Origin: an uncultured virus (IMG/VR IMGVR_UViG_3300011471_000001)
Lineage: Duplodnaviria > Heunggongvirae > Uroviricota > Caudoviricetes
Length of the DNA stretch: 28,527 nt
Reading direction: 5' to 3' (one strand)
IMG/VR virus record: IMGVR_UViG_3300011471_000001
Span: 62,001-90,527 of that record
Shown here: positions 21,118 through 27,081 of the stretch, one piece after another
Numbering within the stretch: position 1 is the stretch's first letter
Layout of the letters: every line of letters begins with the position of its first letter
Translations under genes and position numbers: made by a program
The notes under the pieces: generated by a model
Databases searched by the model: none
What the model was told of the DNA's origin: nothing
The model's input: the letters and a program-made list of their open reading frames with translations, nothing else

Positions 21118-21567
21118 ATGTTTGTATACCCGGTACAGTTGGAGCACGACAAACCAACCGGCTCTTATGTTGTTTCATGTCGTGATCTGCCATTACTGAA
21201 CTCAGTAGGCGACACGGTGGAGGATGCGCTGCTAAACGCGGCTGAAGCTGTTGTTCTGGCAATCTCTATCGAAATGGACGAGCGCCGTATGGTGCCGCTG
21301 GCCAGCAAGGCGAAGAAGGGCGAGTATCTGGTAGGCGTACCGGTGCTGGTGGCCATGAAGGCTGTTTTGCACAATTCGATGATCGAGACCGGCACACGAA
21401 AAGCAGACCTGGCGCGCAGTATGAACTTGAAAGGCCCGCAGGTTGACCGGCTGCTCGATGTGCATCATCCCTCAAAGGTGGAATCTGTCGAGCATGCTAT
21501 CCACCAGCTCGGACGTACAGTAAGGCTGGGGCCGGTTGAGGCTTTTGCTCCAAATAAGCCCGTATGA
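21118..21567 (+). CDS. hicB: HicB antitoxin with C-terminal HTH
   Basis: YPV.L....YVVS.RDLP....GDT.EDAL..A; C-terminal RKADLAR..QVDRLLD. Confidence 0.92.
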   Translation: MFVYPVQLEHDKPTGSYVVSCRDLPLLNSVGDTVEDALLNAAEAVVLAISIEMDERRMVPLASKAKKGEYLVGVPVLVAMKAVLHNSMIETGTRKADLARSMNLKGPQVDRLLDVHHPSKVESVEHAIHQLGRTVRLGPVEAFAPNKPV

Positions 21568-21866: not shown

Positions 21867-22748
21867 ATGGAAAACGACGAAGAAATCAAGACGATAGGTG
21901 ATGCTCTGGTGTATAGCTCTGAGCATGAAGCGAAAAGTTATACACTGACACCTACAGCTAACCGGACAGTCCAGCCGATTGCGCTGATGCGTTTAGGGGT
22001 CTTTGTGCCTGCTGTCCGTAATAAACCCCAGCGCGGGAATGCTGTCATTGATGCGTCTGAAGACTTTGGTCAGCTGGAGATAGCTAAAGCTGAGGGCTAC
22101 ACCAATATCATGATTAAGGGCAGTAGGCTCGATATGAGCACTGACTTTAAGACGTGGATCGGTGCTATCCGGGCCTTCAGTAAGTACGGCGCTGATAGCA
22201 ATCGCATTAAGTTGCCGTTCACTGAATTTGCCAAGCTGTGCGGAATATCCGTGGATGATATCAACCAGCGTTCTCGTGACCGATTTTTCAACTCTTTCCT
22301 GAGACTGGCTTCGCTTGTGGTCTCGTTCAAGAACAAAGACGGCAGCAAAGTGACGATAACGCACCTGCTCAACAGTGCGCATTTTGATACTGAGAAAGAT
22401 ATTATCACCCTGGAAGGGGATTCCAGGCTGTGGGAACTCTACGCATTCGATCACAAGGTCCTGCTTCAACTTAAGGCCATACAGGCATTACCGCGTAAAG
22501 AGTCAGCCCAGGCACTTTACGTTTACATCGAGAGCCTGCCAACCGGCTTCCTGCAAGTGTCGTTAGAGCGTCTTCGTGATCGCCTCAACCTCAACTCTAC
22601 TATCAGCACTCAAAACAATGTTGTTCGCAAGGCTATGAAAGAATTGGCAGATATCGGGTATCTGACGTTCACAGAAGTTAAGAAAAATGGCGTGGTTTAT
22701 TTCCAGATCCATTCGCGCAAGCCTGACCTGCTGCCAGGCAAGGAATAG
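21867..22748 (+). CDS. repA: Plasmid replication initiator RepA (P1/IncFIB-like)
   Basis: TVQPIALMRLGVFVP, EGY, RLDMSTDFKTW, KESAQALY.YIESLP; flanked by iterons. Confidence 0.95.
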   Translation: MENDEEIKTIGDALVYSSEHEAKSYTLTPTANRTVQPIALMRLGVFVPAVRNKPQRGNAVIDASEDFGQLEIAKAEGYTNIMIKGSRLDMSTDFKTWIGAIRAFSKYGADSNRIKLPFTEFAKLCGISVDDINQRSRDRFFNSFLRLASLVVSFKNKDGSKVTITHLLNSAHFDTEKDIITLEGDSRLWELYAFDHKVLLQLKAIQALPRKESAQALYVYIESLPTGFLQVSLERLRDRLNLNSTISTQNNVVRKAMKELADIGYLTFTEVKKNGVVYFQIHSRKPDLLPGKE

Positions 22749-22751
22749 CCA

Positions 22752-23307
22752 TTGCTGATTTCATGGCGGTCATTGCTGGTTTCATGGCAATGTTGCTGGA
22801 ATACCGGCGATTAATGCTGGTGGCTTAGCTTTTTAGAGTGTTTTTTGCTCATTCAGCGCATTTACCATGAAACCAGCAATGATTTCTGTGATTGAAGCGG
22901 CGGATCACCATGAAACCAGCAACGCAGGGCCTTCAAATCATCATCACCTCCATGAAACCAGCAACCGCACTTCTGCAGCCATGCCGGAACCATGAAACCA
23001 GCAATGCCAGACCATAGGCGGCATAAACAGCCGTTAAGCGTAGGCGTCAGTTTGTAAAAAGCAGAAAAGGCTTCACCAGTACATCTGCGTACCTTGAGGC
23101 CCTATGTTTGGAGAATGTTGCTGGTTTCATGTTTCACATTGCTGGTTTCATGGCAGAAACCCTCGCTGTGGCAAAAATGAGCAGTATCTGTATTAATAGC
23201 GGCCAATGACCATGAACCGAACAATGCTGTCTCAATAACGAATGTTCGCGCCATGAAACCAGCAACCATTTCTGTGCTAAATCGGCGGTTCACCATGAAA
23301 CCAGAAA
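22752..23307. repeat. Downstream copy-control iteron cluster (incA-like)
   Basis: Forward copies at 22752, 22773, 23118, 23139; reverse copies at 22865, 22908, 22950, 22990, 23251, 23293; degenerate copies near 22793 and 23210. Confidence 0.92.
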
Positions 23308-23369
23308 TGCTCAGCTGCAGGTGGCAAACTATGTTAAAAATAAAAAAACGACATGAAGGAGTAAAGGGT

Positions 23370-24101
23370 TTGGATGTTGAAAAGTTACTCGCAGGTCTCA
23401 CGCTCCCATCACAATTTCAACATCATGATGTGAGCCTCACGTTTGATATCATTGCATCACTCAATGCTCAAACTGATGACTCTGTTGAAGCAAGCATAGA
23501 AAAATATCGCTTAGAAGGTCCAGAGGTAGAAGAGCATGAAATTTCTGCAGAGGATAATGCTTATTACTATATGGAATACTATCAGGGGTTAGATAGCAGC
23601 TCTGTTGATTTAGACGATATGTTCACATCGTACTATCCAAGTGTTATCCGACGCTCTGTCTTTTTGACATTGTACGCCATGCTTGAGCACGATTACGAAA
23701 AGTTATGCAACGGATTTGCTAAGAGGCATGAGGAGTCAGTCAAGCTGTCAGATCTCAAACATAGCGGCTTTGAACGTTGCGACCTCTATGCCAAAAAAGT
23801 CATTGGCATGCCTACTTCACCACATTATGCGATGGTCAAGAAAGTGACCAAGCTAAGAAATGCTTGCGCGCATAATGATGCTCGGTTTGTAGAAAATGAT
23901 GATAGACCTATTAGTGAACTTGAGGATCTGATGCGTACTTTTCCCGATTTATTGGTTAAAGATGGAAAGCAGATTAACTTCAAGGCCGGATCTCTTCAGG
24001 CAATGACTAGCATTTTAAAAAAATATTTTAATGATGTTGAAGAAGCCTTAAAAGTAAAAGCACATCAATTACCAAACCCGTTTTATAAATTTCGCGAATG
24101 A
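23370..24101 (+). CDS. HEPN-motif protein (putative RNase)
   Basis: Start set at TTG 23370 (RBS AAGGAG) because the track's N-terminus is translated iterons; LRNACAH is an R-x4-H HEPN motif; AT-richer than flanks. Confidence 0.72.
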   Translation: MDVEKLLAGLTLPSQFQHHDVSLTFDIIASLNAQTDDSVEASIEKYRLEGPEVEEHEISAEDNAYYYMEYYQGLDSSSVDLDDMFTSYYPSVIRRSVFLTLYAMLEHDYEKLCNGFAKRHEESVKLSDLKHSGFERCDLYAKKVIGMPTSPHYAMVKKVTKLRNACAHNDARFVENDDRPISELEDLMRTFPDLLVKDGKQINFKAGSLQAMTSILKKYFNDVEEALKVKAHQLPNPFYKFRE

Positions 24102-24124
24102 AAAAAGCCGCCCGTAGGCGGCTT
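24101..24124 (-). terminator. Rho-independent terminator for a leftward transcript
   Basis: Plus strand AAAAAAGCCGCC-CGTA-GGCGGCTT; the U tract is on the minus strand, just after the stop of the 43-aa ORF. Confidence 0.8.
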
Positions 24125-24127
24125 GAA

Positions 24128-24259
24128 TCACTTGTAATGGATTATGGTTACAGGTGCATTGAGAATGGCATTAAATTGCCATCCACTCTCAGCACCCTGT
24201 GTATTCCACAATGCCAAAAACAAGGTTACGGCTACGCCGTAAATCTCGCTCTTACTCAT
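24128..24259 (-). CDS. Small hydrophobic peptide, candidate type I toxin (43 aa)
   Basis: MSKSEIYGVAVTLFLALWNTQGAESGWQFNAILNAPVTIIHYK; below the ORF-track cutoff; GGA SD inside the hairpin GGTTC-AACG-GAACC; terminator follows the stop. Confidence 0.68.
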   Translation of the reverse strand: MSKSEIYGVAVTLFLALWNTQGAESGWQFNAILNAPVTIIHYK

Positions 24260-24581
24260 TTAATGGTTCCGTTGAACCGCTGGCCTTCGGCTGGCCACAT
24301 GCGCATTAGAGAAGGCTAACGCAGATGCTTGCGGGTGAGAATTAAGGTAACTCTGACGCCGAAAATGGGCTGAGAATCCCGTCTACCTATGTGCTTGGTG
24401 CTGTTTAAGCATTCCACCGACAGCTTGGTCTTTGCAAACGTTTTTTTTCAAAAAAGTGATATAAATTTTCCCTCCTTAAATGTTCAATGATATCAATTGA
24501 TTATAATCTTTTAAATTCCTAAAAGCTGGTCGCGCTAGTGCTTGACACTGTAGGTTGGGTGGTGTTAGTAGAGCCTTGCTC

Positions 24582-24609
24582 TTGAAACGGAAGCAACAAA
24601 CCGTATACT
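24582..24609 (+). promoter_or_regulatory. Sigma70 promoter of the candidate sRNA
   Basis: TTGAAA-16 bp-TATACT; predicted +1 near G24616. Confidence 0.7.
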
Positions 24610-24615
24610 GGCTTT

Positions 24616-24752
24616 GAAGGCTAACGCAGATGTTTTCGTAGATCACATCCTTGCTGCCAGCGAAAATTGCCTAAGAACAATTTTTGCATTCTGGATAAAC
24701 GCCTGAGAACGCTTATTCAGATTCAATCAAACCGCCTCCGGGCGGTTTTTTT
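24616..24752 (+). ncRNA. Candidate antisense sRNA (type I antitoxin-like), about 137 nt
   Basis: Bounded by a promoter and a terminator; first 17 nt complementary to the minus-strand leader at 24311-24327; two internal hairpins. Confidence 0.7.
24729..24752 (+). terminator. Rho-independent terminator of the sRNA
   Basis: AAACCGCC-TCCG-GGCGGTTTTTTT. Confidence 0.88.
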
Positions 24753-25024
24753 GTGTCTGAAATCAGGATACAACGTAGAAGATCGTAAAATCTTGCCCTT
24801 TTCATCAGTCAATTAAATTGTATTTTTTCCAGCGACAATGATTGGCACGGGTGCAACAAATCAGGCCCAATACCTATCAGCTGCTCATTAGGCGGGCAGT
24901 ATAACACGCTCTGTTTTGTGAATTGGCGCGCAATTGTAAACGCGGATACCGTGCCAGTATTTATGCTCTACATGTGTAAAAACCATCCATATTTGCTGCA
25001 CACTGTGATCCAAGCCACCAGCAT

Positions 25025-25385: not shown

Positions 25386-25832
25386 GTGATTATGCGCTTA
25401 GAGATAATAGCAATACCTGACGAAGCCGCGCCCAGACAGGCTTTCAGGCAGTTTATTGAAACGGTAGCAGCGGGTTTTCCGTCTCCTGCCATCGGATACG
25501 AAGACACTCCACTGGACCTGAACGAGTATTGCGTCAGGGCCAAAACGGCCACTTATTTTGTGCGCTGCGAGGGTGAGTCGATGGTCGGGGCCGGTATTTT
25601 TGACGGCGATCTGCTGGTGGTGGATAAATCGAAGGCGGCGGCAGACGGCCAGATCGTGATTGCCTCTGTGGACGGGGAGTTTACGGTAAAAAAGCTGCAG
25701 CTGAGGCCGGTGCCGATGCTGCTGGCCATGAACCCGCGCTATAAGCCGATCCCTGTCGAGCCTGATGGTCTGGAAATATGGGGGGTGGTGACATACGTCA
25801 TCCACCGTACTGACAATGTTCCTGCACAGTGA
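25386..25832 (+). CDS. umuD: DNA polymerase V subunit UmuD (start may be ATG 25392)
   Basis: AAGFPSPA cleavage site, GESM, EFTVKKL. Confidence 0.95.
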   Translation: MIMRLEIIAIPDEAAPRQAFRQFIETVAAGFPSPAIGYEDTPLDLNEYCVRAKTATYFVRCEGESMVGAGIFDGDLLVVDKSKAAADGQIVIASVDGEFTVKKLQLRPVPMLLAMNPRYKPIPVEPDGLEIWGVVTYVIHRTDNVPAQ

Positions 25833-27081
25833 CGTCAACGCCTTCTACGTGTCGGCCGAGCTGGCATTCAGGCCGGACCTGTACGGGCGTCCTGTCGTGG
25901 TGGCGACCAACAATGACGGCTGTATTGCGGCGCTGAACCGCGAGGCGAAAAACGTAGGCCTTAAGCGGGGCGATCCGCTGTTTAAAATCCGCGATACCAT
26001 CCGGCGCTACGGCGTGGTGGTGTTCAGCAGCAACTACACGCTGTATGACGCATTCAGTAAGCGTTTCCATACGATAGTGGGCGAGTATGTCCCGAACCTG
26101 GAAGCGTACTCGATCGACGAAGTGTTTGGCTCTCTGGACGGCATGGAAAAGCTGGTGGACTTCCAGACATTCGGAGAAGAGATCCGGCGCACCGTTATCC
26201 AGCACACCACGATGAAGTGTGGCATAGGGATAGCCGAGACGAAGACGCTCTGTAAGGTAGCCACGCACGCAGCAAAGACTTGGCCTAAAACAGGCGGCGT
26301 GGTGGTGCTGACCGACCCGAAACGGCGCGACAAGCTGCTATCACTGCTCGACGTCTCCGAGACGTGGGGTGTCGGCAGAAAGATAGGGGCCAGGCTGCAG
26401 CTGATGAACATCAGGACGATGCTCGACCTGGCCCGCGCTGACACAACCATGATCCGCAAAAACTTCAATGTGATGCTGGAGCGCACCGTGCGGGAGCTGC
26501 GCGGCGAACGCTGCTTCGAGCTCGAAGAGAACCCGCCGACTAAGCAGCAGCTGGTGGTAAGCCGTTCGTTCGGCAAACGCCTCACCAGCCTGGATGAAGT
26601 GAGTAACGCCGTGTGCTTCTTTGCCACCAGCGCCGGTGAAAAGCTGCGGCGTGAAAAGCAGTACTGCCGGAATATCACGGTATTTATCCAGACCAGCAAA
26701 CACGATCCGCGCCGCCCGTATTATTCACGCGGCGCCAGCCATTCGTTTACGACGGCCACACAGGATACCCGCGATCTGATTGATGCCGCCGTGCGCGGCC
26801 TCAGAGCTATCTGGCGGGACGGCTATGAGTATGCGAAGGCCGGAGTGATGCTTGGGGAGTTCTGCGGCTCAGAGCAGCAGCTGAATCTCTTTGACGAGTC
26901 ACCGCCGCGCCCCGGTAGCGATAAGCTGATGGCCGTGATGGACAAGCTGAATAGCTATCAGCGCGGCACACTGTTTATTGCCGGTCAGGGTGTCAATCCG
27001 GCCTACCAGATGAAGCGGGAAATGTTATCTCCGCGCTATCTGACGCGCTGGGAAGAGCTACCCATCGTAAAGATGAAGTAA
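25816..27081 (+). CDS. umuC: DNA polymerase V subunit UmuC
   Basis: DVNAFY, NNDGC, SSNY.LY, YSIDE, SRSFG, LSPRY.TRW.ELP. Confidence 0.96.
   Translation: MFLHSDVNAFYVSAELAFRPDLYGRPVVVATNNDGCIAALNREAKNVGLKRGDPLFKIRDTIRRYGVVVFSSNYTLYDAFSKRFHTIVGEYVPNLEAYSIDEVFGSLDGMEKLVDFQTFGEEIRRTVIQHTTMKCGIGIAETKTLCKVATHAAKTWPKTGGVVVLTDPKRRDKLLSLLDVSETWGVGRKIGARLQLMNIRTMLDLARADTTMIRKNFNVMLERTVRELRGERCFELEENPPTKQQLVVSRSFGKRLTSLDEVSNAVCFFATSAGEKLRREKQYCRNITVFIQTSKHDPRRPYYSRGASHSFTTATQDTRDLIDAAVRGLRAIWRDGYEYAKAGVMLGEFCGSEQQLNLFDESPPRPGSDKLMAVMDKLNSYQRGTLFIAGQGVNPAYQMKREMLSPRYLTRWEELPIVKMK

Follow-up and report, generated by a model that had tools for sequence, protein, structure and literature searches.

The described system closest to the locus reported here is the type I toxin-antitoxin pair timP/timR of Enterobacteriaceae. 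TimP is an inner-membrane peptide, toxic when overexpressed, and its translation is blocked by the TimR RNA. In Escherichia coli K-12, the timP mRNA (annotated as ryfA) is 304 nucleotides (nt) long and carries timP at positions 147-272, and the divergent 100-nt timR RNA is encoded ca. 400 bp upstream. In the accessible text of PMC11228461, the timP leader is described as four stem-loops (SL1-SL4), with the TimR site in the loop of SL2, the Shine-Dalgarno sequence in SL4 and a pseudoknot between SL1 and SL3; TimR destabilises both SL2 and the pseudoknot. How TimR binding prevents the pseudoknot is called unclear in the part of PMC13000454 available to us. Here, we describe a locus found in the final 28.5 kb of a 90.5-kb IMG/VR virus record, IMGVR_UViG_3300011471_000001, which is rated 97% complete. 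This 28.5-kb stretch is referred to as the window, and all coordinates are those of the window unless another sequence is named. Next to the replication genes, a leftward gene for a 43-residue peptide and a rightward gene for a small RNA (sRNA) together form what is likely to be a complete, two-gene, RNA-controlled mobile module and a divergent relative of timP/timR.

Comparison of related loci establishes two RNAs of conserved structure, two co-varying intermolecular complementarities and an open reading frame (ORF) under selection. On this comparative ground, the sRNA-controlled small-peptide module is real and well supported. An earlier, sequence-only reading of the window had pointed to the peptide ORF, the sRNA and the repeat that joins them; it missed the fuller structure of the leader and the second complementarity, which is borne by loops of the sRNA.

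Components of the module and their conservation

The module was recovered as 34 entries (33 when one duplicate fetch is removed), with 26 distinct SL1 regions, from Pantoea IncFII-type plasmids, ca. 90-kb phage-plasmids, viral contigs and metagenomes. A BLASTn search of PLSDB returned six Pantoea plasmids, two of which cover 65% of the query at 72% identity; the plasmid copies are unannotated spacers near the IncFII repA gene. Further loci came from IMG/VR viral contigs, through peptide- and pattern-based scans, from one species-representative metagenome-assembled genome (MAG; Candidatus Pantoea borealis) and from metagenomes (19 loci), while a BLASTn search of GenBank phages with the module gave no match. 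Since the IMG/VR pattern scans demanded both sRNA loop motifs and the -10 box, conservation of these parts in the pattern-found loci is by construction; the ORF, leader, seed, target and SL1 loop lay outside the pattern. Genes flanking the module vary between loci. Searches of open-access text for type I toxin-antitoxin systems, phage-plasmids and plasmid-borne ryfA in Pantoea, and for type I systems of plasmids with kissing or divergent RNAs, turned up no description of the module, and the accessible text of the T1TAdb paper (PMC8594479) mentions neither Pantoea nor Erwinia. In a metatranscriptome, a 798-nt contig of a ca. 86%-identical relative spans 24102-24762, stopping 9 nt past the peptide-gene terminator. 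This is compatible with transcription, carried-over DNA being an alternative source of the contig.

The minus-strand ORF of the earlier reading, its hydrophobic N-terminal stretch and the minus-strand terminator that follows are all in the sequence, and the ORF is conserved. An ORF of 39-47 codons that ends just 5' of the terminator is present in 34/34 entries, and the terminator hairpin is invariant in two module alignments. Among 22 distinct ORF sequences, the ratio of non-synonymous to synonymous substitution rates (dN/dS) is mostly 0.07-0.4 in pairwise comparisons, the exceptions being two close pairs at 0.61 and 0.75 and three pairs that have no synonymous change. Differences at codon positions 1, 2 and 3 number 655, 534 and 939, respectively, a third-position excess. 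Judged by these substitution patterns, the ORF is under purifying selection and is a real gene. Its product starts with a basic or polar segment, continues with a hydrophobic core (10-13 residues) and a polar region rich in Gly, and closes with a polar tail whose end carries a conserved motif, (I/L)NAPVT(V/I)I. An AlphaFold model built on a 32-sequence alignment has a helix at residues 3-19 followed by coil, with a mean predicted local distance difference test (pLDDT) score of 69.7, and we propose that the N-terminal helix of the peptide is signal-like or transmembrane. Among 5.8 billion proteins, a word-indexed search yielded 17 matches, the named ones being Pantoea "hypothetical protein" entries; a HMMER scan of 1.84 billion cluster representatives yielded 22, about a dozen of them short family members and the long ones of low complexity. 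The ESM Atlas returned no usable match to the peptide.

Both the promoter and the terminator that had been proposed for a plus-strand RNA are present (Table 1). The window's sRNA (ca. 138 nt) folds at -44.6 kcal/mol (z = -4.5). When a three-helix structure comprising hairpins A and B and the terminator was specified and applied to 24 distinct sequences, 96.5% of cells were paired, a value that dropped to 42-55% when partners were slid; 12 of the 30 pairs change on both sides, a number reached in 0/500 shuffles. Covariation supports the fold of the sRNA. Both hairpins show the same 8-nt loop, CCUGAGAA; in the window, hairpin A reads CCUAAGAA.

The mRNA of the peptide probably runs leftward from a predicted +1 near 24401 to the terminator at 24105, a length of ca. 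300 nt, with a 5' untranslated region (UTR) of ca. 142 nt and the ORF at ca. 143-274. A promoter-like site is found at the corresponding position in most subgroups. An alternative, stronger-looking site further upstream, found in the window's subgroup only, may be due to chance in AT-rich DNA, because it is unconserved across subgroups. In 27 leaders, SL1, SL2 and SL3 are 92.6-95.4% paired and contain compensatory pairs. The SL1 closing pair 27-40 is GC in 11 sequences, UA in 10, UG in three and AU in one; both partners vary in SL2 pairs 91-118 and 93-116; and in the SL3 stem (95.4% paired), pair 125-133 is GC in 17 and CG in seven. The hairpin that the earlier reading had placed around a GGA Shine-Dalgarno element exists as GGTTC-CGTT-GAACC at 24265-24278 and forms in the minimum-energy leader fold; such an SL4-type hairpin is conserved and clear only in the subgroup with 43-residue peptides, the other subgroups having a UAAGG Shine-Dalgarno sequence. 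In addition, UUCGG(C/U) beside the SL1 loop can pair with (G/A)CCGAA of the SL3 loop, making a candidate SL1-SL3 pseudoknot of five pairs (94.8% paired).

A test of 15 leader pairs gave 94.6% paired, compared with 27-47% when partners were slid, and the percentage paired, the number of cells changed on both sides and the covariation score all beat 500/500 shuffles. Scoring left out lower SL1 and inner SL2, for which there is no single register. RNAalifold recovered only 12 pairs from the whole leader, because the subgroups align in different registers.

Two contacts between the RNAs

The first contact joins the 5' end of the sRNA to the leader. A 17-mer noted by the earlier reading occurs exactly twice in the window, at 24311-24327 and 24616-24632; with up to two mismatches allowed, the shuffle expectation is 0.01, and 0/100 shuffles gave two copies. 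Its extension to 21/23 positions with one G-U pair is also correct on reading. All loci show a complementarity between the initial 20-21 nt of the sRNA and a segment of their own leader. The distance from the end of this segment to the AUG is 48-54 nt, except in two plasmid loci, where the first in-frame ATG is 40 nt away. There are 13 distinct combinations of seed and target, and each pairs at 19-21/21 positions. Cognate duplexes (25 distinct pairs of sRNA end and leader, containing 11 distinct 17-mers) have predicted energies of -31.4 to -39.1 kcal/mol, while 544 non-cognate pairs average -21.7 kcal/mol and extend from -9.6 to -38.8; seeds that are closely related can still cross-pair. The cognate energy total was matched by 0/10,000 permutations. 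The compensatory change in both copies that the earlier reading had proposed to look for is thus present, in that 11 seed versions each match their own target. Its statement that the match begins at the predicted +1 also holds, within 1 nt, in every relative. An unrestricted RNAduplex run with the full-length RNAs gave, besides the seed, only long meaningless structures.

The two copies are direct repeats in intergenic DNA, ca. 260-320 bp apart, and direct repeats can be protein-binding sites; they might, in principle, serve a regulator as operators or stem from gene conversion, and not pair as RNA. We regard this as very improbable. One copy starts no more than 1 nt from the predicted +1 of a terminated sRNA and the other sits in a conserved leader hairpin, differences between the copies are mostly G-U compatible, and the flanks are unmatched. 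Moreover, the eleven seed versions come without a linked specificity protein, with neighbour genes that differ between loci, and a separate 7-nt loop motif co-varies too.

That motif defines the second contact. UUCUCAG is found at -111 to -120 of the leader in 28 of the 29 loci that have an ORF, and it is the exact complement of CUGAGAA, the core of the sRNA loops. It lies within the 8-nt loop of SL1, above a closing stem of 2-4 bp that varies with compensation, and is predicted to be open in leader folds. Two variants of the contact were found. In locus L037, both sRNA loops read CUGAUAA and the SL1 loop reads UUAUCAG, and the 21-nt seed is also new, its two copies being identical; this locus was found via the peptide, having been missed by the first DNA pattern. 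The second variant, CUGCUAA with UUAGCAG, is present in five ryfA-like chromosomal loci (see below), where the motif is again an 8-nt hairpin loop.

A 47-kb viral contig, IMGVR_UViG_3300031417_000419 (locus L014, 5.4-8.4 kb of the contig; also L045/L046), carries two complete modules head to tail, ca. 900 bp apart. One has the standard seed and loops, and the second has the CUGAUAA/UUAUCAG variant. Seed, SL1 loop and both sRNA loops all differ between the two, which should therefore be mutually orthogonal.

Two further occurrences of the loop motif were seen. In the subgroup with 43-residue peptides, UUCUCAA, one base off the SL1 loop motif, is found inside the ORF (24163-24169, +94 of the ORF in the mRNA), and loci L019, L023 and L027 have a second UUCUCAG further upstream, at -205.

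Table 1. Features of the module in the window.
Feature	Position	Strand	Details
Antitoxin-type sRNA, ca. 137-138 nt	24616..24752	+	seed 24616-24636, hairpins A and B, terminator 24729-24748 and U tract
sRNA promoter, TTGAAA-16-TATACT (10/12)	24582..24609	+	-10 hexamer and flank invariant in 7/7 aligned sequences
sRNA hairpin A	24660-24687	+	loop CCUAAGAA, 24670-24677
sRNA hairpin B	24690-24721	+	loop CCUGAGAA, 24702-24709
Candidate peptide-mRNA promoter	24408..24437	-	-35 TTGCAA 24437-24432, 18-nt spacer, TG, -10 AATGCT 24413-24408
Alternative promoter-like site, TTTAAA-17-TATCAT with TG	24487..24515	-	
SL1	24346..24387	-	apical 8-nt loop AUUCUCAG, 24370-24377; UUUCGGC 24358-24364, candidate pseudoknot strand
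SL2	24297..24328	-	3' half of the sRNA target in the loop; folding, alignment
21-nt sRNA target	24311..24331	-	pairs over 20 contiguous positions, one G-U; ends 51 nt upstream of the AUG
SL3	24282..24296	-	GGCC stem, loop AGCCGAA; GCCGAA 24286-24291 can pair with SL1
Shine-Dalgarno hairpin, GGUUC-AACG-GAACC	24265..24278	-	holds a weak GGA; counterpart of timP SL4; formed in the minimum-energy leader fold
TimP-like peptide ORF, 43 codons and stop	24128..24259	-	ORF list, homologues, codon selection
Intrinsic terminator of the peptide mRNA	24098..24124	-	stem 24124-24105 and U tract; also closes the convergent 282-residue ORF

Relation to timP/timR and to other antisense pairs

The sequence-only reading had recognised no known family and had proposed a new one. 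Its first part stands: neither the RNA of the window nor the peptide matches a family in Rfam, Pfam, NCBIfam, PHROGs or PADLOC. A covariance-model search of the whole window returned nothing at Rfam gathering thresholds, and matches at E ≤ 10 were to unrelated families, far below gathering and mostly over terminator hairpins. No Rfam, Pfam or NCBIfam model of tisB/istR-1, zorO/orzO, shoB/ohsC, dinQ/agrB, hok/sok, ldr/rdl or ibs/sib was matched. The second part holds only in part, the peptide profile reaching ryfA/timP-like loci. When this profile was run against 301 genomes of the MAG's family, four had a match, namely the MAG itself, one genome with a weak match and two genomes that together hold five ORFs. 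The weak match (G099/L052, E = 6.7e-4, the weakest obtained) is a reading frame without a surrounding module and was dismissed. The five chromosomal loci with these ORFs, and locus L056 from the same genome, match the Rfam ryfA model RF00126 over model positions 1-296 with E values of 1e-7 to 1e-14. In hhalign, the family profile aligns over its full length with the peptides of two of these bridging loci, at probabilities of 96.8% (E = 2.4e-10) and 85% (E = 6e-6).

The architecture of the module matches that of timP/timR as it is given in the available parts of PMC7667032, PMC11228461 and PMC13000454: a peptide of ca. 40 residues with an N-terminal signal-like hydrophobic part is encoded by an mRNA of ca. 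300 nt with a 5' UTR of ca. 145 nt. In both systems the antitoxin sRNA is divergent and upstream, and its 5' end pairs with ca. 18-21 nt in SL2; the Shine-Dalgarno sequence lies in a hairpin, and the order of the stem-loops is the same. The module also has candidate strands for an SL1-SL3 pseudoknot, which may correspond to the published ones. The systems differ in setting, as the module lies beside the replicon on plasmids and P1-like phage-plasmids and the E. coli timPR at the chromosomal sseA-sseB site. The sRNA of the module is also longer (ca. 138 nt versus 100 nt for the annotated timR) and has two hairpins with identical loops that complement the SL1 apical loop. Finally, the seeds of the module are highly diversified, and two modules that differ in specificity lie in tandem on one contig. 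Because the peptide profile reaches ryfA/timP-like loci and the leader architecture matches that of timP, we favour a divergent mobile branch of timPR over a new type I family.

Convergence of an independent type I family on the timPR layout, with a spurious ryfA-like link, is the competing explanation, and several results count in its favour and against kinship. The ryfA matches of the bridging loci, at 28-61 bits, are under the Rfam gathering score of 80. The window RNA does not match RF00126 at gathering or at E ≤ 10, nor do loci L008, L032 and L037 at E ≤ 0.01, and in the opposite direction a covariance model of the module leaders misses the ryfA loci (best score 11.8 bits, E = 0.16). Against E. 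coli TimP, the family profile shows no similarity (hhalign probability 0.1%), and the L056 peptide gives no BLASTP alignment. The length of the sRNA and its two hairpins also set it apart from timR. We nevertheless consider convergence improbable. The loci whose match to ryfA spans positions 1-296 encode peptides to which the profile aligns over its whole length; the module agrees with timP in mRNA and UTR length, ORF position, stem-loop order, the place of the sRNA site and the candidate pseudoknot strands; and the kissing motif is common to the ryfA-like loci, differing only by co-varying bases.

Some observations were made on the chromosomal loci themselves. Within the spacer between timR and ryfA of E. 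coli K-12 (L062, 5340-5900), there is another timR-like unit as well as a truncated start resembling that of ryfA. By eye, the initial dozen bases of ryfA have a near-complement, off by one extra C, in the segment GGAAAGGCCGC within the body of annotated timR; the pairing could possibly be a second contact, sited differently from that of the Pantoea modules. A BLASTn search of E. coli genomes with L056 matched an unrelated spacer, acnB-yacH, and was set aside.

Among the other type I systems, tisB/istR-1, zorO/orzO, shoB/ohsC and dinQ/agrB share with the module a non-overlapping, divergent antisense RNA and a short perfect complementarity that lies in a long leader, well ahead of the ribosome-binding site (PMC8594479, in its accessible text). 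They differ from it in that the peptide of the module has a signal-like N-terminus and a polar tail, not a single full-length transmembrane helix; the module also implies no mRNA processing step and adds a loop-loop contact. Fast recognition through exposed loops, accompanied by a longer duplex at another site, is known from par/Fst RNAI-RNAII of pAD1, hok/Sok, CopA/CopT and ColE1 RNAI/RNAII, all in the setting of plasmid maintenance. Those pairs are cis-encoded or overlapping, whereas the contacts of the module are between trans-encoded RNAs of non-overlapping genes, with two identical sRNA loops facing one mRNA loop.

Genomic setting, proposed mechanism and significance

We take the record to be a P1-like phage-plasmid, a label that rests on genes we associate with phage P1 (Ref, Dmt, HumD, RepA). 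A Pfam scan of the window identified a pair of Dam/Dcm-type methyltransferases, RdgC, a baseplate protein, a RecA-dependent nuclease, a HicB-like protein, a Rep3 initiator gene (repA, 21867-22748) and, just right of the module, UmuD- and UmuC-like genes on the plus strand (25386-27081). No LexA box was noticed when the module sequence was read by eye, no scan having been made. The HicB-like antitoxin gene is at 21118-21567 on the plus strand, with no obvious HicA in the ORF list. Just 3' of the Rep3 gene, at 22750-23250, translations of short ORFs on both strands repeat the same peptide words many times, which suggests an array of iteron-like direct repeats in the DNA. A 282-residue ORF (23253-24101, plus strand) converges on the bidirectional terminator of the peptide gene. 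It has no Pfam family; its residues 188-267 have a weak PADLOC match to the HEPN-type domain of defence-associated reverse transcriptase (DRT) systems (RTasHEPN, E = 5e-4), and its translation shows an R-x4-H motif. This ORF beside the replicon may encode a defence or abortive-infection nuclease. In the Pantoea plasmids, the left neighbour of the module is an SOS-response-associated peptidase gene. In viral contig L013, an ORF ca. 120 bp 3' of the peptide-gene terminator has, in a frame translation only, a P-loop motif resembling zeta-toxin/AAA-type kinases.

We propose that the leftward mRNA of ca. 300 nt would fold its 5' UTR into SL1-SL4, possibly with the SL1-SL3 pseudoknot, ahead of the 43-codon ORF. 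The sRNA would pair almost perfectly with SL2 through its initial 20-21 nt, in a duplex that ends 51 nt 5' of the AUG, and peptide synthesis would be repressed; at the same time, one or both sRNA hairpin loops (CUGAGAA) may kiss the SL1 apical loop (UUCUCAG). By analogy with timPR, binding of the sRNA would open SL2 and keep the translation-licensing SL1-SL3 pseudoknot from forming, and a loop-loop contact beside the pseudoknot strand of SL1 would, as we hypothesise, account for the latter. RNase III may cut the long (20-bp) duplex, cleavage of antisense duplexes by this enzyme being plausible from what is generally known of type I systems. With seeds and loops diversified, different modules would not cross-neutralise. 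A simple alternative, sRNA-driven sequestration of the Shine-Dalgarno sequence, is unsupported, as blocking the target in silico moves accessibility in no consistent direction.

We advance only tentatively, and at less than even confidence, the fuller proposal that the twin sRNA loops kiss the SL1 apical loop beside the pseudoknot strand, that loops and seed together make a two-key specificity code, and that this is the missing pseudoknot-dismantling step of TimR-type antitoxins, allowing mobile elements to evolve addiction modules that are orthogonal to one another. Neither PMC7667032 nor PMC13000454 uses the words "kissing" or "loop-loop" in its accessible text, and the abstract and Results of PMC11228461 mention no such contact.

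A number of results weigh against the mechanism or against parts of the evidence for it. The accessibility changes caused by in silico target blocking were small as well as inconsistent. Folded alone, SL1 of the window is undistinctive (z = -0.56), and other pairing, which buries part of the loop motif, is preferred. The pseudoknot has only one co-varying pair (50-127: UA in 11, CG in nine, unpaired in five), the other four being near-invariant, and in the 15-pair leader test two of the five measures, both counts of pairs, failed against shuffles (320/500 and 318/500). At the second contact, locus L007 has the SL1 loop UUACUCAG without a compensating change in its sRNA, the loop of the window's own hairpin A has one mismatch to SL1, and loop co-variation amounts to about two independent events. 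The hydrophobic stretch of the peptide is short, and in searches of Pfam, NCBIfam (E ≤ 10), PHROGs and PADLOC the peptide had no family match save one chance match to AraJ. Evidence from RNA libraries consists of assembled contigs alone, which have no readable ends or strands.

We infer the transcript ends, the repression, the toxicity of the peptide and a role in plasmid or phage-plasmid stabilisation (post-segregational killing) or defence; toxicity and role are inferred because of the kinship with timPR, the position beside replicons and the diversified specificities, including two orthogonal modules in one element. Should the regulation be as proposed and the peptide be no toxin, it would be a small membrane or exported protein that serves, for example, in superinfection exclusion, in signalling or to modulate a membrane complex, and addiction would not be the function of the module. 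The peptide does resemble a signal peptide with a polar tail of ca. 20 residues more than it does a full transmembrane helix, no toxin or defence model matches it, and TimP itself is toxic only on overexpression, timR deletion permitting growth (PMC7667032, in the part available). On the other side, tight double-contact antisense control, a sequestered Shine-Dalgarno sequence and a long structured leader typify toxic type I peptides, the module adjoins plasmid and phage-plasmid replicons, and it is kin to loci of a proven toxic peptide family. A non-toxic peptide seems to us rather unlikely, though clearly less so than convergence, and a toxin of a TimP-like kind is the reading we retain.

Up to now, timPR has been a chromosomal model of translation control by an RNA structural switch, of which the module would be a natural, diversified and mobile branch. 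Evolution has already made compensatory changes at two separate contacts, and these lead to testable predictions for swaps of seeds and of loops. The module adds an unannotated element, of a maintenance or defence type, to Pantoea plasmids and P1-like phage-plasmids, and provides an example of antisense specificity diversifying on mobile elements, in one case with two orthogonal modules as neighbours on the same contig. We find the co-varying loop-loop contact the most interesting feature of the module; if the proposed two-key code is true, addiction modules would be orthogonal, and co-resident plasmids would be unable to disarm each other.

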